This document shows positions 279 through 56,137 of a DNA stretch of 64,000 nucleotides, piece after piece. A program made the translations under genes and the position numbers. The notes under the pieces were generated by a model. The model was not told the DNA's origin, did not search any database, and saw only the letters and a program-made list of their open reading frames with translations. Where the stretch lies: contig NC_052158.1 in assembly GCF_902713615.1 (NCBI RefSeq), forward strand, positions 2,418,001-2,482,000, given 5' to 3'. The DNA comes from Scyliorhinus canicula. Taxonomy: Eukaryota. The first letter of the stretch is position 1. Each line of letters begins with the position of its first letter.

Positions 279-2203
279 CATAAGAACATAAGAACTAGGA
301 GCAGGAGTAGGCCATCTGGCCCCTCGAGCCTGCTCTGCCATTCAATGAGATCATGGCTGATCTTTTGTGGACTCAGCTCCACTTTCCGGCCCAAACACCA
401 TAACCCTAATCCCTTTATTCTTCAAAAAACTATCTATCTTTACCTTAAAAACATTTAATGAAGGAGCCTCAACTGCTTCACTGGGCAAGGAATTCCATAG
501 ATTCACAACCCTTTGGGTGAAGAAGTCCCTCCTAAACTCAGTCCTAAATCTACTTCCCCTTATTTTGAGGCTATGTCCCCTAGTTCTGCTTTCACCCGCC
601 AGTGGAAACAACCTGCCCACATCTATCCTATCTATTCCCTTCATAATTTTAAATGTTTCTATAAGATCCCCCCTCATCCTTCTGAATTCCAATGAGTACA
701 GTCCCAGTCTACTCAACCTCTCCTCATAATCCAACCCCTTCAGCTCTGGGATTAACCTAGTGAATCTCCTCTGCACACCCCCCCCCCCCCCCCCCCGTGC
801 CAGTATGTCCTTTCTCAAGTAAGGAGACCAAAACTGAACACAATACTCCAGGTGTGGCCTCACTAACACCTTATACAATTGCAACATAGCCTCCCTAATG
901 TTAAACTCCATCCCTCTATCAATGAAGGACAAAATTCCATTTGCCTTCTTAATCACCTGTTGCACCTGTAAACCAACTTTCTGTGACTCATGCACTAGCA
1001 CACCCAGGTCTCGCTGCACAGCGGCATGCTTTAATATTTTATAGTTTAAATAATAATCCCGTTTGCTGTTATTCCTACCAAAATGGATAACCTCACATTT
1101 GTCAACATTGTATTCCATTTGCCAGACCCTAGCCCATTCACTTAACCTATCCAAATCCCTCTGCAGACTTCCAGTATCCTCTGCACTTTTCGCTTTACCA
1201 CATATCTTAGTGTCATCTGCAAACTTGGACACATTGCCCTTGGTCCCCAACTCCAAATCATCTATGTAAATTGTGAACAATTGTGGGCCCAACACGGATC
1301 CCTGAGGGACACCACTAGCTACTGATTGCCAACCAGAGAAACACCCATTAATCCCCACTCTTTGCTTTCTATTAATTAACCAATCCTCTATCCATGCTAC
1401 TACTTTACCCTTAATGCCATGAATCTTTATCTTATGCAGCAACCTTTTGTGTGGCACCTTGTCAAAGGCTTTCTGGAAATCCAGATATACCACATCCATT
1501 GGCTCCTCGTTGTCTACTGCACTGGTAATGTCCTCAAAAAATTCCACTAAATTAGTTAGGCATGACCTGCCCTTTATGAACCCATGCTGCATCTGCCCAA
1601 TGGGACAATTTCTATCCAGATGCCTCGCAATTTCTTCCTTGATGATAGATTCCAGCATCTTCCCTACTACCGAAGCTACGCTCACTGGCCTATAATTTCC
1701 TGCTCTCTGCCTACATCCTTTTTTAAACAGTGGTGTCACGTTTGCTAATTTCCAATCCACCAGGACCACCCCAGAGTCTAGTGAATTTTGGTAAATCATC
1801 ATTAGTAGGGCAGCACGGTGGCCTAGTGGTTAGCACAACCGCCTCACGGCGCTGAGGTCCCAGGTTCGATCCCGGCTCTGGGTCACTGTCCGTGTGGAGT
1901 TTGCACATTCTCCCCGTGTCTGTGTGGGTTTCGCCCCCACAACCCAAAAATGTGCAGGCTAGGTGGATTGGCCACTCTAAATTGCCCCTTAATAGAAAAA
2001 ATAATTGGGTAATCTAAATTTATAAAAAAAAAAAAAAAAATTAGTGCATCTGCAATTTCCCTAGCCATCTCTTTTAGCACTCTGGGATGCATTCCATCAG
2101 GGCTAGGAGACTTGTCTACCGTTAGCCCCATTAGCTTGCCCATCACTACCTCCTTAGTGATAACAATCCTCTCAAGGTCCTCACCTGTCATAGCCTCATT
2201 TCT
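279..2203 (-). mobile_element. CR1/HER1-type LINE, 5'-truncated, RT ORF largely open (351-1802)
   Basis: YLDFQKAFDKVPH, GVPQGSVLGP, KFADDTK; repeated TTCTTATG tail at 279; nested in an older CR1 and interrupted by a SINE. Confidence 0.93.
1808..2040 (+). mobile_element. HE1/V-SINE-type tRNA-derived SINE, poly(A)-tailed subfamily
   Basis: A box TGGCCTAGTGG, B box GGTTCGATCCC, V-domain core, poly(A); TSD ATTAGT. Confidence 0.9.
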
Positions 2204-40263: not shown

Positions 40264-40442
40264 ATGAAATGAAAATCGCTTATTGTCACGAGTAGGCTTC
40301 AATGAAGTTACTGTGAAAAGCCCCTAGTCGCCACATTCCGGCGCCTGTCCGGGGAGGCTGGTACGGGAATCGAACCGTGCTGCTGGCCTGCTTGGTCTGC
40401 TTTAAAAGCCAGCGATTTAGCCTGGTGAGCTAAACCAGCCCC
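40264..40442 (-). mobile_element. Short (about 180 bp) tRNA-derived SINE of a second family with a Rex-like tail
   Basis: Reverse complement GGGGCTGGTTTAGCTCA...GGTTCGATTCCCG...CTCGTGACAATAAG; TSD TGA. Confidence 0.75.
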
Positions 40443-45935: not shown

Positions 45936-46285
45936 TTTACTAACTTTCTGAAAGAGGCGTCTTAACTCGCAAGTAATCGGTTAAAGTGAAAACAATTGGG
46001 CAATTTGATTACTTTCAGAGTATGTGTTCTATAATTTATATGGAATCATATGAATCATTTATTAAAACAGTTTTCATGTCTTATTGTACAGCTCTTCAAA
46101 ACCCTCACAAGTAGATACATCATAGGTAACAGTCCGAACACAGTATGGCAAAATACCCTCGCTTCAGTTCCTAATCTTAACTAACAGCCATCCCAAACAT
46201 TACCGTCATTCCTTAATTACAGGTGTCAACAAGGCAGTGGTAGCATTTTCTGCTTTAATGTTTTGTCTCACAGTGACGTACGTGT

Positions 46286-47249
46286 TGTAGCCACTGTAGC
46301 CACCTAAAATGGACACTGAACTAAACAAAATGGAGAATCGCTAAGACTGCAGGGAAAAACAGTTTAGCCAAGGCAAGCAGCCTGCAAACACTCATTAGCA
46401 TTTTGCAAGCAGCAAAACTAGTTTCTGGCCAGGTGGAAGATCTCAAACCAAAGGTGATAATGGCAGAACGTTTTACATACTAATGAGGCAGTCCAGATCT
46501 AGGGACACACAATGGCAACATTTGGGTTTGAATAAGATACTTGAGTGGATGTCCAGACAGAGCGGCACCAGAAGTATCCACTATAGAAACCGCCCCCACC
46601 ATCAAGAGAGACCCTCACATTGGAGGAATTCAAAAGATATCGATTGGAAGCGATCCAATCGATACCTGAAGGTAAAGCCCGCCCAGGAAAAGGCAAGGAC
46701 ATTGGGGACCCCTATAAAAGTAGACCCCCACACATGGTCCTGTCTGTTGTTTCGTGCTCCGGCTTTGACCAAGACCTTGAACGTGTATCCTGACTCCAGC
46801 CGTTGAGCACCAGCCGCCGAACCGTAAGTGCCAATACGACGCTCGCTACGCGAACCAAGCCCGCTAGACCCCCAGTGACCAGCACGCTTTCTGAAGGTTG
46901 CAGACCAAGACCGGGACGAAGGCCTCGCTCCCTGACCTTGCCTGTTCCTGTGTAGTTAAGTATTCTGATTGCTTAGTTTAGTCATAGCTTAGTCCCTTAG
47001 TGTGTGCATGCGTATTTATTATAATTGTATAATAAATATTGATCGTTTGGAACTTACTAATCGGTGTATCGTTTTATTACTTTGAACCTGACCTTGGAAT
47101 ATTTGTGAGGTGTCTATACGGCATCTGGCGACTCCTGAGCTGAAAAATACATATACAGAGCCTAGTAGTGTTAAGCACACGGCCTTTAACGGAGGCAAGT
47201 TAATACACTCCAATAAACGCGTTTTACACCCATAGCAAAACGTGCAACA
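46286..47249 (+). repeat. 5' LTR (964 bp): TATAAAA 46713, splice-donor-like CC|GTAAGT 46824, AATAAA 47031 and 47212
   Basis: Direct repeat of 55109-56072 at offset 8823; three substitutions seen by eye. Confidence 0.96.
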
Positions 47250-47254
47250 TTTAG

Positions 47255-47272
47255 TGGCGACATCCTGACGGG
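47255..47272 (+). other. Putative primer-binding site TGGCGACATCCTGACGGG
   Basis: Starts with TGG, 5 nt after the LTR end; cognate tRNA not identified. Confidence 0.6.
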
Positions 47273-47565
47273 ACACGGTTATAAGTGGTACCCCCACTCC
47301 GTCGAGGACCCTGAAATTTGAATTAGAAATCTGGTAAAGAAAAAGGAAAGAAATCACAAATATTCAAGGTGTTCAAAGGAATAAACGTAATTTGGAAGTG
47401 TGTTTAGTGCATGCGTACTAACAGGGTTGTAAGGAAAACCTGAAAGCATTTTTGTTGCGACAAACTTTCGGTAGTTTTGTGAACGGAACATAGCGTAAGC
47501 CTTACCCGTTTCGTGAGACATAACCTCAACACCCCCTGTTCTAAATTTAAAGTGAGTCAGAGAAA

Positions 47566-49277
47566 ATGGCCATGCAGGCAATGGAACGCCTCATGAACCC
47601 AGAACGGTTTGTGGTCGCAGCGACCAGCAGTAGCCGAGTAGGTCAGTGTCCCATGTGGGAGCTGGAACTCCGCAAGTATCTGCAAGGAAAGGGATGGCCC
47701 CTTTGGAAAGAGTTTTGTTTGAATGAGGAGACAGGTCCCGGAAGTATAGGACATACTTGGTGGGAGAACCTCTCTCAAATTCACAAGAAAAACATGAGTA
47801 AAGCACGTAAGCCGATGTCCTGTTTGGCACAATTGCGAGGCACAGAGGAGGTCGTTCAGACGCTCCGGGCAGAATTAGAAGAAAGAGATAGAATGAGTAA
47901 AGTGGATGTCAGGGACATCGAAAAGGAAAATATGGATCTAAGAGGGAAGTTGGCAGAGAAAGGTAGAGAGGTGGATGATGCCAAGAGGGCACATCAGTCT
48001 TGTCTAGCCCATCTCAGCAGTTCCCAGACCCAGTACGAAAAGGCCTATCAGGACGTGCAACGTGCCGTCCTGATAAGAGAAGAATCAGAGAAGCAGGTAG
48101 AGGCTTTGCAGAGGCAATGCTCTGACCTTAAAGCAGCTTTGAGAGCACTCCATGCTGCCACCACAGAACAAAGGCAAAGTACAGTAGATCACGCAAAATG
48201 CAGGAAGCAGATTGCAGAGCTGCAATCGCTGCTTTCGGTGCAAAATGGGTTTCAAAGCACCTTTGGAACGCAGTTAGATGAGGAGAATGCCCCAGACTGG
48301 AAAGAGTTAAGTGAGACAGCGCAGCGTTATGTTCAGGGAACATGTGCGCCAGCAGCGCAGCAGAAAAGGCAAGCACCCCAACCCCCCACAGTTACCATTC
48401 CAATGAATCCAGTCACCACCCAGAGAAAAGCGACCATAGAAGGCGCACCCGATATAACTTACACCACCCCCTTAACTGTAACCCAACTCAGGGACGCGTG
48501 TGAGAAGATCACTCCGTTTCTCCCCACCGCAGACCCCCACCAGTTTTTCGCAAAGGTAAAGCAACAGGCTACGAGAGAGAGCAGGTTAAACTCACAGTTC
48601 TGAGTTTAGACCCATCGGTTGTAGCAGCCCTCCCCGACCCACAGAACGTTGGCGGAGGCACCCTAGAGGAAATGCACACCTCCATTTTAGACGCCATAGG
48701 GTATAATCGAGGTGACCCCGTAGAAGGACTTAATAAGTGCCGGCAGAAGAAATCCGAGCACCCCACAGCATTCGGCGGAAGGCTGTGGATCCATTTTAAC
48801 GCAGTATTTGGCGATTTAAATAGAGCCCATTTGAACCGTGAAAATATGGTTAAATGGACGCGCACCATAATTTCTCATGCAACAGAAGCAGGACAGAGCG
48901 CTTGCAACAGCTATGACCCCTCAGAGGAGGCCCATAATGAGAAGTGGGTCCTGAAAAGATTGTCCCGCGCTTGGGAGCAATCAGTTCAGGGCAGAGGTAA
49001 AGTGAAATCCCCAGAAGAAGCTCAGGCTGCAGCAGACATACAGGCAGTGAGAGAGCACCAAAAACCCGCGTGGGTGAATGAAGGAAAGAGCAGCCCTCCA
49101 CAGAAGTCGCAGGAATGCTACAACTGTGGCCAGTTAGGACATTGGGCTAAGGAATGTAATGGACCCCAGAGATCACAGAGAGGCCAGCAGACAGGCACTC
49201 TGAACCGGAATAAAACAAAACCGATCCATAGTATAGGGATCCAGTCAGGACAGACCAATGTGGACGGAACGGACTGA
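47566..49277 (+). pseudogene. gag: gag, with a frameshift near 48573: coiled-coil N-half, capsid-like region, CCHC zinc knuckle
   Basis: ORFs 47566-48603 and 48672-49277 join across a frameshift (...QQAT / EREQVKLTVLSLDP...); CYNCGQLGHWAKEC at 49116-49157. Confidence 0.85.
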
Positions 49278-52200
49278 CGGTGTTCGGGCTCCCCCACTTG
49301 GGTCTGTGACACACTATGGGATCCGTCAGGAAGACCGGTAGTCACGGCAAAGTTAAGAGGGAAGCCCATAGAGTTACTTTGGGACACAGGAGGCTCCCGC
49401 ACCACAATTAACTCCACCACCACGGCACAAGCAGACACGTGGCCGACCACCTCCACCATCACACTTAGCGGGTTCACAGGACACTCGCAGCAGGGACATA
49501 TCACAGCACCCGTAGCAATCCAGCTAGGGAACATTTCCACCAAACACCCAGTAGTTTTAGTAAATCTTCCCCGGACAGCAGAACACATCCTAGGGATAGA
49601 TTTTATGAATGCACATAGCCTGTCGTTCGACCCAGTGAACCAGTGTGTCTGGCGAATGGCAAGATCGGACAGAGCACCCGCTACTCTCACAGTAGGAGAC
49701 TACGCTAATCGGATTAGCGCAGTAGGAGAATACTCATTTGACTTGACTACACTAAACACGGACAGACAAGTTAAGGCAGTATTAAATAAACACAGGACAG
49801 CATTTGCCAGTCACCGGCATGACTGCGGCAGAATGGCTGGACAAATTCACGTTACCGGACCTGACCCCAGACCACAAAAACAATATAGATTTCCCCTAGA
49901 AGCAGAGGGAGAAATAGAGAAAGTGATAGGTAGCTTATTGGAGCAAGGTGTGCTTAGAACAGTAGCCTCGACCAATAATGCCCCTATTTGGCCAGTGAGA
50001 AAGCCCGACGGATCATGGCGTCTGACCATTGATTATCGGGAACTCAATAAAGTAACCCCAGCAGTAGCCCCCACGGTAGCAACAAGTCCCGAGACCATGC
50101 TCAAGCAGGGACTCAACTCCAAATATTTCACGGTATTGGACATTAGCAATGGCTTCTGGTCAATCCCATTGGCAAAGGCGTGCCAGTACAAATTTGCCTT
50201 CACTTTTAAAACACAACAGTATACGTGGACATGCCTTCCACAAGGATTCCACAATTCCCCCTCCATTTTCCATCGACAGCTGGCGAATGGTTTAGAGAAA
50301 TTTTCCCGCCCCGAATGTCTGGTACAGTATGTGGACGACCTACTACTGCAGACAGACACAAAGGCAGAGCACATTACGCTTCTGGCCGAACTCCTGGAAC
50401 TTTTAACCAAGATTGGATGTAAAGTTAACCCAAGAAAGGCCCAGATTTTGGAAAATAAAGTGATGTATTTGGGAACAGTCATCACACACGGCAAACGCGA
50501 GATCGAATTCAAAAGAATTGATTCGATTGTCAAATTGCCCCTTCCCCAGAATGTTTCAGCCCTCCGGTCGTTTTTAGGACTGGTTGGTTATTGTCGGAAC
50601 CACATCGACGGATTCGCGACAAAAGCCGCCCCACTCTCAGACCTCCTTAAGAAAGGAGCCCCCTGGGAATGGCTTCCGCAGCATACAGAGGCTGTGGAAG
50701 AGTTAAAGAAAGCCCTTAGCGCAGCACCCGCGCTACAAGTCCCAGACCAACTTTCCCCCTATGCAATAGAGGTAGCGAGCACAGATCTGACCCTCTCGGC
50801 CGTGTTACTTCAGGAACGGCACGAGCAGCTAAGACCAGTGGCTTATGCCTCCCGACTGTTAGACCCAGTTGAACAAGGATTTTCAGCCTGCGAGAGGCAC
50901 CTCCTTGCAGTCTTCTGGGCAGTGCAATATTTTTCTTACATTACCGGACTCAACCCCACCACCATTTTGACCGAGCACACCCCCACACAGTTACTCCTAG
51001 ACGGTCGACTGAAGGACGGTTCAGTTAGCCAGATTAGGGCAGCTAGGTGGACACTACTTTTACAAGGACGGGACATTACAGTTAAACGGACCCACACACA
51101 CACATTTTTAGCCGACAACCTCCAATACCCAGGACAGCCCCATGAATGTGAAATTGTAGCCCCCTTACATAACACAGGACCCTTTATAGCGAAGACACCC
51201 CCCAGGAAGATAGGGAACCCAAAACAAAGCCCCCAACACACAGACACGTGTGGACCACTGAGGATTTACGTAGACGGTTCATCCACAGTTTTAGAAGGTG
51301 AGCGTATCACAGGATGCGGCATCTATGTCGAGGACGCGCAGGGGCGCGCTCTCGAAGAGATAGCTTTAAAATTACCGGGCCACTTAGGCGCGCAGGCAGC
51401 AGAGCTCGCGGCCATAGCTTATATAGTGGACCACCCCGATTCTTTCCCCAGCCCAGCGGACATATATTCGGACAGTCTATATGTCTGCAATAGTTTAACA
51501 GATTTTCTGCCCCTGTGGAGGACACGAGGTTTTGTCTCCGCAGACGGGAAACCCCTTCCATCAGCCCCTTTACTCCAACACATTTTAGAGAAAGCGAAGG
51601 ACAGGACCTTCGGCATTATCAAAGTAAGAAGCCACCATAGGTCATCCCCCCCTGGGAATGTAAAAGCCGACGCACTGGCTAAGGCAGGTTCCAGGCGAGG
51701 ACACTTGTGGACACCCCCAGCTAGCGCACCAGCTAGCGCCCCTGTGAGCGCAGTCCAAGTCTCACAGACCGATATTAAAGATTTAGTAGAGGCACAAAAG
51801 CAGGATGAGGATCTCAGGGAGAATTTCAAAGGCAACTTTGTGCCACAGTATGACAAATTCAGACACGCACTGACCACACATGAGGGTGTGATCATAAAGG
51901 ATCAGCTTTATGTGGTCCCGCAGCAGGACAGGAATGAAATGATTGCTTTGTTCCATGATGGACACGGGCATCAAGGGATCGACGCAACCACGAGGCACCT
52001 CAGGCAACTCTGTTGGTGGCCTAACCTAAGGACAGATGTAAGTCACTACATCGAGAATTGCCTTATTTGCGCCCAGAATAACCCGGAGAGGTATTCTAAA
52101 AAGGCACAACTTCGGCATACTCGACCAGTTAATGGCCCCTGGACAAACCTCCAGATCGACTTTATAGGACCATTGCCCCCTTGTAGGAATGGCTATAAAT

Positions 52201-53506
52201 ACGTTCTGGTGGTCATCTTTACCAAATGGGTAGAGGCATTCCCCTCTAGAACGAATACAGCTAAGACAGCTGCAAAGATCCTGACCCACCACATCTTCAC
52301 GAGATGGGGTTTACCCCGTAGCATTGATTCGGACCAGGGATCTCACTTCACAGGACGGGTCATGAAGAACGTCCTGACAATATTTGGCATAAAACAAAAT
52401 TTTCATATTGCGTATCACCCACAGTCCAGCGGGATTGTAGAGCGCATGAATCGGACCCTAAAATCCACACTTCGCAAAATGGTTCAAGAGAACAACTCCA
52501 CATGGGATTCAGTGCTCCCATTTGCATTAATGTTCATCAGAAATACAGTTTCAACTTCCACAGGATACACACCACACACACTCATGACCGGACGCCCTAT
52601 GAAAGGTACAGAATTCCTTTTAGGACTGGACATGACTAGCCCCGAAGTGACGGCCCTCACACACGAAAAGACGGTTAAAGACCTGGTTGAGACTGTGAGG
52701 TCTGCACAGATTGCAGCCGCAGTTCAGCTAGGGAAACGCCGTAAACAACGCACAGCTTGTTTTAACAAGACCGTACACCCCACAGAATTCCAGGTTGGGC
52801 AACAGTAATGTTATCTGTTTACAACCCCAACAGTTTTTTGGCACCAAAATATTCCGGCCCATACTCAATGTCGGATAAAATTAGCCCCTCAGTTTATAGG
52901 ATAAAATATCCTAATGGTAAGACCGCGTGGTTCCATATCAACCAGTTAAAGGCATATGGAACACAGGCCAACCATGCACACCATGTCCTGCTAGACGCAG
53001 CAGAACACCTCACCCCACCCACTAGAGACACGTTTCCACCATCCCCCTCACAGACCAGTTCTTCATCGGACTCGCCCACGACTCCGCCCACAGACCACGA
53101 CAGACCACGCCCCGAAATGCCCACAAGCTGCCGCGGCAGAGACAGCGATACAGACACTGACTCTGAGGACAGCCACAGCACACCACACTACAGCCCACAT
53201 AGCAGCGACTATGACCCCGACTACAGTGACCCCATGGAAGTCACTTACATTAAAAACCCAGACCCACCACCCGACCCCGACTACCCCGACAATACCCATT
53301 CACTTTTGGACCCAACACTCTGGCACAGGGACAATTCGTACCGACTTGTCCGCAACGATGAAAGTGACCCCCGGTCACACAATTCAAAGATATCATGCCT
53401 GATCCACACAAGGGTGTGGGATCCGGGAGAGCAGGACGACACGGTGTCTGAATCCCGATACGGCAACCCCTTTGTGACCCTGTTCACAGAGACAGAGGAA
53501 AAGTGA
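49278..53506 (+). pseudogene. pol: pro-pol: protease, RT, tether RH, RNase H, integrase; 1-nt frameshift at about 52806
   Basis: LLWDTGGS (49383), ILGIDF, LPQG, YVDD (50328), IYVDGSS...AELAAI...YSDS...NVKADALA, HHCC, DFIGP/SDQGSHF/VERMN; KYSGPY continues in the next frame. Confidence 0.92.
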
Positions 53507-54386
53507 GGTGTCCAGATGATGTAAAATAGGAACCGCTTGAGGGAAGCGATGTCCTTTCTGATGGAACCTGCACGTATGTTTTTGTTTGTCAGTTTATGTT
53601 TTGTTTGTTAATATGTTAAGGGTTTGATTGCAGATCTTTTCAGCTGAAAAGATTGTGACCACCTCGCACGCACGTTAGTTTGTCTGCAGATACCTCTGAG
53701 AACTTCAGGTGTATCCTCTGGTGAACCGACACGGTTCACGACTTGTTCCCTGTTTTCAGATGAGGGAGCATCTTGGCTCCTCCATTGTTTTTAGGTGCCC
53801 CTCTATTCGGTGAATAGAGGCTGCAAATCCATGATAAACACATTCTTGCCCGTTTAATCCAGGTTACTCAGGCAGTGGACAAACGGCACTGAGGACCCGC
53901 CCTGTCTGAGAACCCACTTTGGTCAGCCAAGCTCGGGTATGGCACAGCACGCCCTACCCGGGGATCCCATTCAAATCGTACCCGTAGCGGCCCATACGCA
54001 ACCCATTCGACCTTTCATTTCCAATTTGTTTTCATTTTTCGTTAGGCAGCCCTTAGGCCGCCATCCCACATGCTATTTACATCCAGGAACATTCGGATGG
54101 TAAATGAGCAAAGCCTGCGAGACGGCTCGCAGGAGGAACGTTGTTAGGTGTATTGTGTTCATTAAATTCGCTTTTGAAAAAAAAAATGAGGGGAGTCACA
54201 GGGTGTGACTTGGCCAGTCATTGTAATGGGTCAATTGGAATTGAAAGACAGATACACTAACAAGTACGGATATTAAGCTGTATTGACAGATACTGTGCTT
54301 GATCCCATAGCTTTCGAAGGACGAAACAGAGATCACAGCAAGGATCGGCCATACAGGAGGAACAAAAGAAGGAGAACGAAGAGAAG

Positions 54387-54731
54387 ATGATGGAAGCCCA
54401 CTTATTGCTTTTAAATGTTATATTTGTTTGTGTGGGAGCAAGACACGTTTCCCCCACAACCCCCACCGTAAATGTTTCACTTACAGCAACTCCCCCGTGC
54501 TCAGCTCTGATCAGTGAGGTTCAGACCTGGTGCACAAAATTTATGACATGGTACTCCATGTCATACGTGATTGAATCACTGCTAGTGATTGCGATCCTCG
54601 CCATACTCGTACAGACCCTCAGGTTGAGGAAGTGGAAGAGGAGAGCCTCCCGTTCCTGCCCCTCAACCGTCTATGGAGTTCAATCTCCTATCTTCGGTTT
54701 CCACCAATCCCCCCAGCCCCTCAATGAATAA
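54387..54731 (+). CDS. Accessory ORF of the retroelement: 114-aa small type-I membrane protein
   Basis: Hydrophobic N-terminus ending VGA|R, NVS sequon, C38/C49, TM YVIESLLVIAILAILVQTL, polybasic RLRKWKRRASR; sits in the env position. Confidence 0.7.
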   Translation: MMEAHLLLLNVIFVCVGARHVSPTTPTVNVSLTATPPCSALISEVQTWCTKFMTWYSMSYVIESLLVIAILAILVQTLRLRKWKRRASRSCPSTVYGVQSPIFGFHQSPQPLNE

Positions 54732-55108
54732 TAAAGCACTGTGTGAATAAAATAAAATATATACCCATGTATTATATTGTCCTGAACTCGACTACCGAGT
54801 CAGGAAATGTTATGTGATGTGGTATGAATGGATGAGGTTTAGTCTGTAATGAAATGTTTAAGTTAAGATAAGGATAATTGTGATAGGTAGAGGTTCCCAG
54901 TTTGTGGTAATGCATGTCCCCTTTGACATAGCGCCAAGTAGAGATGTCAGTTAAAAAAAAATTTTCTTCCCATAGTTTAAGGACAGAGTAGACGCTCAGG
55001 AGCTTGCCGAGGTCAGGGAACACAAAGAAGGCAACCCAGATGCACTCAAGGCAACGTACATAGGTGATCCTTCACAATATTTTGATTGTGAGGATCACAA
55101 GGAGGGAA

Positions 55109-56072
55109 TGTAGCCACTGTAGCCACCTAAAATGGACACTGAACTAAACAAAATGGAGAATTGCTAAGACTGCAGGGAAAAACAGTTTAGCCAAGGCAAG
55201 CAGCCTGCAAACACTCATTAGCATTTTGCAAGCAGCAAAACTAGTTTCTGGCCAGGTGGAAGATCTCAAACCAAAGGTGATAATGGCAGAACGTTTTACA
55301 TACTAATGAGGCAGTCCAGATCTAGGGACACACAATGGCAACATTTGGGTTTGAATAAGATACTTGAGTGGATGTCCAGACAGAGCGGCACCAGAAGTAT
55401 CCACTATAGAAACCGCCCCCACCATCAAGAGAGACCCTCACATTGGAGGAATTCAAAAGATATCGATTGGAAGCGATCCAATCGATACCTGAAGGTAAAG
55501 CCCGCCCAGGAAAAGGCAAGGACATTGGGGACCCCTATAAAAGTAGACCCCCACACATGGTCCTGTCTGTTGTTTCGTGCTCCGGCTTTGACCAAGACCT
55601 TGAACGTGTATCCTGACTCCAGCCGTTGAGCACCAGCCGCCGAACCGTAAGTGCCAATACGACGCTCGCTGCGCGAACCAAGCCCGCTAGACCCCCAGTG
55701 ACCAGCACGCTTTCTGAAGGTTGCAGACCAAGACCGGGACGAAGGCCTCGCTCCCTGACCTTGCCTGTTCCTGTGTAGTTAAGTATTCTGATTGCTTAGT
55801 TTAGTCATAGCTTAGTCCCTTAGTGTGTGCATGCGTATTTATTATAATTGTATAATAAATATTGATCGTTTGGAACTTACTAATCGATGTATCGTTTTAT
55901 TACTTTGAACCTGACCTTGGAATATTTGTGAGGTGTCTATACGGCATCTGGCGACTCCTGAGCTGAAAAATACATATACAGAGCCTAGTAGTGTTAAGCA
56001 CACGGCCTTTAACGGAGGCAAGTTAATACACTCCAATAAACGCGTTTTACACCCATAGCAAAACGTGCAACA
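55109..56072 (+). repeat. 3' LTR (964 bp), preceded by PPT AAGGAGGGAA (55099-55108)
   Basis: Near-identical to the 5' LTR. Confidence 0.96.
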
Positions 56073-56137
56073 GTGTCAAATCCAGCATTTTCACCTATGC
56101 AAAGCATAAGATTGCACACATTTAAAACTATTATTGA

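Follow-up and report, generated by a model that had tools for sequence, protein, structure and literature searches.

The DNA analysed here is a 64,000-nucleotide stretch of the genome of the catshark Scyliorhinus canicula (assembly GCF_902713615.1, contig NC_052158.1, positions 2,418,001 to 2,482,000, forward strand), hereafter the window, in whose own numbering all positions are given. It holds an endogenous retrovirus (ERV) that spans positions 46286 to 56072, from one 964-bp long terminal repeat (LTR) to the other. On balance, we read this element as a defective member of a young ERV family that is rich in copies, lacks env and belongs to a deep lineage of the Retroviridae; a small gene under purifying selection, predicted to encode a membrane protein, may stand in for Env. 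The identity of the element and the reality of the small gene are held with high confidence.

A predicted membrane glycoprotein in the env position

An open reading frame (ORF) of 114 amino acids (aa), located at 54387–54731 (+), occupies the env position of the element. It was not mentioned in an earlier note that had described this DNA from its letters alone. Sequence features, hydropathy and AlphaFold predict a type I membrane glycoprotein composed of a signal peptide, an N-x-S sequon, a Thr/Pro stalk, a W-C amphipathic helix and a membrane helix that contains Glu63, followed on the cytoplasmic side by a polybasic patch (RLRKWKRR) and a tail with Tyr96. The signal peptide was judged from the hydrophobic start, which is found in every full-length row of the small-protein alignment. 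According to AlphaFold and hydropathy, a hydrophobic helix lies at the N-terminus and a second, long one spans residues 39–90; the model (pLDDT 67) comprises these two helices only. The W-rich amphipathic helix has a hydrophobic moment of 1.6. Across 22 small-protein sequences, no variation is seen at N29/S31, W48/C49, E63, R79/K82/W83 and Y96.

A HMMER search against 1.84 billion representatives revealed four homologues, all of them Scyliorhinus gene models, S. torazame included, and none outside Scyliorhinus; genome searches with three of the four gave more than 5000 candidates each. The small protein has no match above the cut-off in a Pfam scan, a word-index search with it yielded 0 of 12 candidates, the best Atlas score was 0.88, which lies under the bar for recognition, and no viral fold matched the AlphaFold model at E ≤ 0.001. 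A description of such a gene was not found in the open-access and bioRxiv literature. As a side observation, a HEPACAM2-like isoform of S. torazame terminates in the transmembrane (TM) segment and basic patch of the small protein, and the NCBI host gene models P0163, P0164 and P0166 take their 3' exon from the small ORF, either through exonisation or as an annotation artefact.

A splice-acceptor-like motif is located at 54296–54310 (+), with its AG at 54309–54310, and is followed by a purine-rich leader of 76 nt; both this motif and the position of the ORF resemble those of env. The motif, TGCTTGATCC..AG, is present 46–87 nt upstream of the small ORF in 43 of the 45 extracted loci, a sister subfamily has an AAG variant, and matching exon starts are found at the motif in two NCBI gene models. 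No GT-AG joint into the acceptor was found among the joints listed for eight Logan contig sets covering the element, a result made uninformative by the fragmented contigs of the repeat family. The non-coding region 53500–54300, which separates the small ORF from pol, is about 68–77% conserved across families; it contains several more pyrimidine-AG sites and a variable tandem duplication near 53620–53710, and might possibly hold extra small exons or RNA structure.

Conservation and selection of the small gene

The small ORF is open in all 40 loci that were retrieved with the small ORF itself, which is a biased selection. As a check against this bias, it was inspected in 15 copies taken from 40 pol-selected matches, and is open in every one of them. 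In all 20 diverged small-ORF loci examined, the ORF keeps its slot and gag and/or pol-type sequence lies upstream of it, although at one of them (L164) this is only a distant integrase match. Across these loci the identity of the small ORF is 46–68%, compared to mostly 78–97% for the reverse transcriptase (RT) where present.

Selection was estimated from 45 distinct small ORFs extracted from 79 loci (14 were not extracted and the remainder are duplicates). The Nei-Gojobori ratio of nonsynonymous to synonymous substitution (dN/dS) is 0.24–0.32 overall and 0.09–0.16 in the core, which encompasses the juxtamembrane W-C, TM and basic segments; the signal-peptide region is weakly constrained (0.45–1.16). 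In seven cross-family pairs, which are not fully independent, the ratio is 0.13–0.42 and every pN/pS interval lies below 1, and in the pol-selected subfamily it is 0.16–0.23. A chance ORF was rejected on the strength of these values, the invariant motifs and the presence of the gene in a second species. A hidden env in the form of a long fused ORF was also rejected: the longest open frame across the small ORF among 450 scored matches is 361 aa, and in the three cases checked the upstream frame is read-through of non-coding sequence. An env-less clan with thousands of candidate loci thus keeps a predicted small membrane protein under strong purifying selection, with synonymous sites near saturation between families.

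Age and copies of the element

The 5' LTR (46286–47249, +) begins with TG, ends with CA and contains TATAAA at 46713 and AATAAA at 47031 and 47212. The 3' LTR (55109–56072, +) has the same length of 964 bp and differs from it by three substitutions. With two rates from PMC4422223, both of which are assumed, this divergence of 0.31% translates into an age of about 0.7–7 million years. The element is flanked by a 4-bp target-site duplication, GTGT, at 46282–46285 and 56073–56076, and an exact 4-bp duplication is present in five of six other copies with both flanks readable. A primer-binding-site-like sequence (47255–47274, +), which begins with TGG 5 bp past the LTR, is identical in the other copies inspected, and a polypurine tract was read from the sequence at 55099–55108 (+). 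The copy in the window is defective: the frame is broken near 48570–48600 in gag and near 52800 in the integrase, whose core has also suffered a small in-frame deletion near 52215. No ORF of env size follows pol before the 3' LTR is reached. Of 40 loci, 35 have a locatable pol end, and in these the longest stretch free of stops measures 125–224 aa.

A first-look genome search, which scores the best candidates only, returned 2118 candidates with the LTR, 3032 with the 3' region and 8415 with the small protein; these figures are not copy numbers. Among 20 close copies fetched, LTR identity is 98.5–99.9% in 16 of 17 comparable copies and 96.5% in one partial pair, Pol is open over at least 1400 codons in seven, and gag and pol are both open in three. 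Of the top genome matches to Pol queries from other species, all 40 in one set and 35 of 37 in another are free of internal stops, a sample biased towards the best matches. The LTR pairs of older families of the clan are 92.6–97.6% identical. Taken together, these figures show that the clan has expanded repeatedly and recently. Five internally deleted copies (L043, L062, L162, L171 and L173) have lost pol but retain the small-ORF region, the LTR region and some or most of gag, and are likely non-autonomous derivatives.

Phylogenetic placement

Trees were computed from hand-picked subsets of 34–61 rows, with foamy, gamma, delta, ERV-L-like, Loki and Gypsy sequences as references. A row was assigned to Loki when its motifs matched those in the published alignment, and Odin rows were compared by eye only. 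The closest database RTs are the 'NYNRIN-like' Pols of frog and coelacanth (53–59% identity), followed by that of the snakehead retrovirus (SnRV), the best named virus (48%), by turtle and bird elements (39–47%) and by teleost Loki (about 38–41%). The SnRV entry (P0026) was confirmed against the published alignment and a 10,688-bp viral contig. No relative of the Pol was found among viral contigs, and the metagenome contigs revealed only Loki, ERV-L-like and Gypsy loci.

In four trees of the RT, or of the RT with the adjoining degenerate RNase H fold (the tether), the window element is placed with the retroviruses and apart from Loki and Gypsy, with support of 99 (SH-aLRT, an approximate likelihood-ratio test), 100/99, 99/99 and, under a mixture model, 100/99. 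In the approximately unbiased (AU) test on RT and tether, a grouping with Loki is rejected (p=0.0025), as is one with ERV-L (p=0.004), and neither a grouping with foamy viruses (p=0.16) nor one with SnRV (p=0.24) is rejected. The Loki/Odin RT signatures of the published alignment are absent from the RT of the element. The RT is outside Gypsy and the RNase H is dual, and not of the single active Gypsy type that is typical of Metaviridae; the RT is inside the retrovirus clade (100/99), but the env that characterises Retroviridae is missing. Loss of env is common in ERVs (PMC12440569).

Among the retroviruses the lineage has no stable place, as backbone support between the retroviral clades is 35–58. 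It forms the first branch on the retrovirus side in the maximum-likelihood (ML) RT tree (47/48) and is mixed with foamy viruses under the mixture model, with weak nesting (47/44 and 48/93). The window element pairs with the database sequence P0003 in both the RT (91/83) and RNase H (99/98) trees, and P0003 resembles the skate element le_er_ERV4 by eye. Xu et al. 2018 list ERVs from whale shark, skate, elephant shark, coelacanth, frog, eel and turtle (PMC6001957), and these share, by eye and over the first 400 letters of each entry, the RT motif set of the element. Since homologues were already among the 2018 ERVs, and given the RT placement, the lineage was sampled earlier and belongs with the Retroviridae. 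Of the distinct chondrichthyan clade suggested by the earlier note, a chondrichthyan subclade is retained as plausible, through P0003 and its likeness to the skate element. The lineage is best described as a deep one within the Retroviridae, sampled before and without a name, whose domains other than the RT look archaic.

A group of bird Pol-like proteins (P0010 and P0014–P0025), near-identical across ostrich, crane, stork and hummingbird, represents a related lineage. The YxDD motif is lost in the two that were inspected, and these proteins are possibly a co-opted ERV pol gene.

Organisation of gag and pol

The gag gene (47569–49277, +) ends in TGA and encodes, in unbroken relatives, a protein of about 580 aa with no Gly2 myristoylation start, a long coiled coil and one CCHC knuckle (Pfam zf-CCHC). 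The coiled coil is predicted at residues of about 120–200 of a relative and is the sole part of the AlphaFold model of Gag with moderate confidence, the overall pLDDT being 39. The capsid region shows a weak match to SnRV Gag (probability 61%, E 8e-5), compared to only 4% for Loki Gag. The Atlas leads (Retrotrans_gag, DUF4939 and foamy Gag) all score under 0.9.

At the gag/pol junction (49275–49280, +) an in-frame TGA-CGG constitutes a predicted readthrough site. Among 40 loci examined, the knuckle frame reaches the junction in 25, of which 24 have TGA-CGG and one TAA-CGG. A UGA stop that precedes CGG or CUA is known to be leaky. An in-frame TGA junction is also found in Loki loci, as TGA-CTA, and in XtERV-S (PMC8278194), so that this arrangement is shared and not new.

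Pol has a length of about 1408 aa in unbroken relatives. It begins with a protease (49278–49613, +; Pfam RVP and gag-asp_proteas), followed by the RT (49866–50672, +; Pfam RVT_1) with LPQGFHNSP and with YVDD at 50328. The tether (50670–51065, +; Pol residues 465–596) was delineated by alignment and by Pfam RT_RNaseH_2/RT_RNaseH, and precedes a second, complete RNase H with the D-E-D-D set (51261–51692, +; Pfam RNase_H, Pol residues 662–805). The integrase (51915–52957, +) includes the HHCC motif, the core and an SH3/GPY-type domain (Pfam Integrase_H2C2 and rve), and SH3_Tf2-1 scores just under the cut-off in this region. An acidic, Pro/Ser-rich tail (52958–53506, +) with a more conserved terminal block completes Pol. 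A scan with Rfam gave no match.

The anatomy given in the earlier note is borne out by these data in all its sequence statements: the young LTR pair, the 4-bp duplication, the dual RNase H with EVAS, ERH and TEH in the tether and D-E-D-D in the second domain, each where the note had placed it, the Gag with one CCHC knuckle and a predicted coiled coil, and the absence of env. Its description of a recently active, env-less element with a retrovirus-type Pol agrees with the LTR identity, the missing env and the Pol domains. Its attribution of the element to a shark is supported by NCBI proteins that carry the label Scyliorhinus canicula and match the genome at 100%. The layout of tether and second RNase H, which the note took as a mark of Retroviridae and their sister lineages, is common to all retroviruses (PMC7947760, PMC9040795) and is, therefore, no sign of a sister group.

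Proposed role of the small gene and alternatives

Following standard retroviral biology, a full-length RNA driven by the LTR would be translated into Gag, and leaky readthrough of UGA-CGG would give Gag-Pol. The second RNase H would be the cleaving enzyme, with the tether in a structural role, and the integrase would generate the 4-bp target duplication. A spliced RNA that uses the acceptor at 54310 is predicted to encode the small protein, whose type I topology would leave the glycosylated stalk outside and the polybasic, Tyr-containing tail inside. Because Gag has no myristoylation start, it would need a membrane anchor or a contact-site fusogen. The small protein may provide either, in the manner of Drosophila sORF2 and FAST-like proteins, and so help capsids to reach the cell surface or to cross into a neighbouring cell. 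That the protein serves the element is suggested by selection that persists across selfishly expanding families. An Env substitute for egress or contact-dependent transfer is, in our judgement, a serious possibility somewhat short of probable; it is favoured by the env slot, the amphipathic-TM-polybasic layout, the Gag without a myristoylation start and the coiled coil of Gag.

Several points weigh against the overall reading of a deep retroviral lineage with an Env substitute. Env-less ERVs can amplify inside germ cells without any membrane protein. Splicing into the 54310 acceptor is inferred only, and no link in sequence or fold of the small protein to any fusogen or Env was found. Unlike most sORF2 and FAST proteins, it has a signal-peptide-like start and a glycan sequon and lacks an N-myristoylation motif, which is present at the N-terminus of four of six sORF2 proteins (PMC11952523). 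As to placement, the AU test on the RT alone does not formally reject a grouping with Loki (p=0.061), and the trees were computed without Odin, fish foamy-like, alpha, beta, lentiviral and CGIN1 sequences. In the integrase tree the element is outside the canonical-retrovirus clade (91/56), and Loki joins the frog and coelacanth relatives (93/93), with the element nearby in an unstable position; in the RNase H tree the element groups with Loki plus foamy viruses (81/96). The three phylogenies that the earlier note had proposed thus place the RT with the Retroviridae, the RNase H with Loki plus foamy and the integrase outside the canonical clade. Its position 'near the transition' between retrotransposons and retroviruses is in keeping with the last two results and with the unstable backbone.

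Vpu and papillomavirus E5 are familiar small membrane proteins that modulate the host. A possible, though rather unlikely, alternative is that the small protein is an accessory factor of this kind, in an element replicating inside germ cells, and that its buried Glu binds a host membrane protein and thereby counters restriction or signalling. The invariant intramembrane Glu63, the juxtamembrane Cys49 and the tail Tyr96 would suit such a role, the signal peptide and glycan site fit a trafficked surface protein, and M2 and DAP10 are among the weak resemblances given by Atlas, as mere leads with scores below 0.9. By contrast, the ORF occupies precisely the place of env and follows an acceptor-like motif, its W-rich amphipathic helix and polybasic patch fit FAST/sORF2 features, and this alternative comes without a known host partner.

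The small ORF could also be a shrunken remnant of env, in which a signal peptide was joined to the membrane-proximal, TM and tail segments and which was kept for budding or trafficking and not for fusion. The ORF matches env in position, in its acceptor and in its type I layout, and a downstream env was required by Han 2015 for the SnRV-related ERV lineage of the elephant shark (PMC4422223), so that env-bearing relatives may exist. We consider this origin unlikely, as no similarity to Env was found among 5512 translated segments and proteins (including the env of Loki and of snakehead retrovirus) or among 1.84 billion representatives, and the 361-aa frame over the small ORF owes its upstream part to non-coding read-through. 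A remnant of env would be compatible with a function as Env substitute and as host modulator alike. Highly improbable, and largely refuted by the RT split of 99–100 in the four trees, the AU test and the missing RT signatures, is a reading built on the earlier note, in which the element belongs to a sister lineage of the retroviruses that is of Loki/Odin type and was env-less from the outset: its strongly Gypsy-like tether (37–41% identity to Loki versus 25% to SnRV), its integrase (44–47% to Loki) outside the canonical clade, its RNase H grouping, the TGA junction shared with Loki and its first-branch position in the ML RT tree fit that view, but its Gag is closer to SnRV, and Xu et al. 2018 (PMC6001957) count its relatives among the ERVs.

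ERVs that lack env are commonly regarded as intracellular retrotransposons without a membrane component. The small gene retained here suggests that their life cycle includes a step not yet described, and if its product is an egress or fusion factor, envelope-independent cell-to-cell spread would extend from Drosophila Metaviridae to vertebrate Retroviridae. A bolder and more doubtful extension of the Env-substitute reading is that a vertebrate retrovirus lineage swapped Env for a minimal, independently evolved FAST/sORF2-like protein, spread by contact from soma to germ line and produced many successive bursts in catsharks, with a Pol that may represent the first lineage to diverge on the retrovirus side of the Loki split. 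As it combines a retrovirus-side RT with an integrase and RNase H that lean towards Loki, the lineage should be useful for rooting the retroviruses. What is new is not another Loki/Odin-type sister group, but a conserved gene for a predicted small membrane protein in a previously sampled lineage.

Surroundings within the window

The element is located in a loose histone cluster, with intact-looking H2A, H3, H2B and H4 genes at about 11.6 kb (+), 19.2 kb (-), 20.8 kb (-) and 63.6 kb (+), respectively; this H2B has a divergent N-terminus. Fragments of long interspersed nuclear elements were found at 351–1829 (-), at about 30.2 kb and 32.1 kb and at 56.1–58.5 kb, with CR1/L2-type RT motifs among them, and Tx1/L1-type endonuclease and RT motifs lie directly to the right of the element. 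A tRNA-Phe-like ARAGORN match at 40352–40441 (-) is probably the head of a short interspersed nuclear element.

Comparison with known systems

The ERVs of Xu et al. 2018 compared here are rh_ty_ERV2, le_er_ERV4, ca_mi_ERV1, la_ch_ERV1/4, Na_pa_ERV7, an_ja_ERV4 and pe_si_ERV1. The Gag-protease of rh_ty_ERV2, from the whale shark, is plainly homologous by eye to that of the element, and the portions of the text considered make no mention of a small TM gene (PMC6001957). SnRV, with clade Huo and CmiERV lineage I (PMC6001957, PMC4422223), has an in-frame gag/pol stop like the element and the best RT identity of any named virus. It differs in its large env, its far more degenerate tether and the placement of its integrase, and in no tree was it recovered as the partner of the element.

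Lokiretroviruses have the dual RNase H and a Gypsy-like tether in common with the element (PMC7947760, PMC9040795), and may share their CGIN1-type integrase with it, CGIN1 itself being absent from our trees. A coiled coil, as in the Gag of the element, is noted in the Gag of the Loki-related BHIKHARI and of foamy viruses (10.1101/2024.03.25.586437). The RT clade of lokiretroviruses is separate, by contrast, and their paramyxovirus F-type env was not seen in the element; Wang and Han report Loki in none of six chondrichthyan genomes (PMC7947760). Odin retrotransposons are env-less with a dual RNase H like the element, but their RT is sister to that of Loki and they are reported only in sea anemones (PMC9040795).

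The window element differs from Spumaretrovirinae, whose Gag is not known to carry a CCHC knuckle, in possessing this knuckle and a conserved in-frame TGA junction. The Pol of Spumaretrovirinae has its own start in another frame (PMC8278194). ERV-Spuma.0-Sca (PMC10699275) is likewise a dual RNase H retrovirus of the catshark. Identity with it was considered and rejected, as it has a length of 9220 bp, an 866-bp LTR with another start, a pol frame with a start of its own and an 'env' coding sequence of 1.3 kb.

In layout the small protein resembles the sORF2 proteins of the Drosophila MDG1 group and the reovirus FAST proteins, which likewise have about 100–200 aa, one TM helix, an amphipathic ectodomain segment and a polybasic patch next to the membrane (PMC11952523, PMC12945298). 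In addition to the differences weighed above, the small protein has a buried Glu and an acceptor-like motif upstream, and shares no homology with them. Like the small protein, sORF2 is carried by env-less LTR elements, and small TM proteins, some of them encoded downstream of pol, provide a precedent for env-less cell-to-cell spread (PMC11952523), in Metaviridae in the case of sORF2, whereas the element described here is a member of the Retroviridae.

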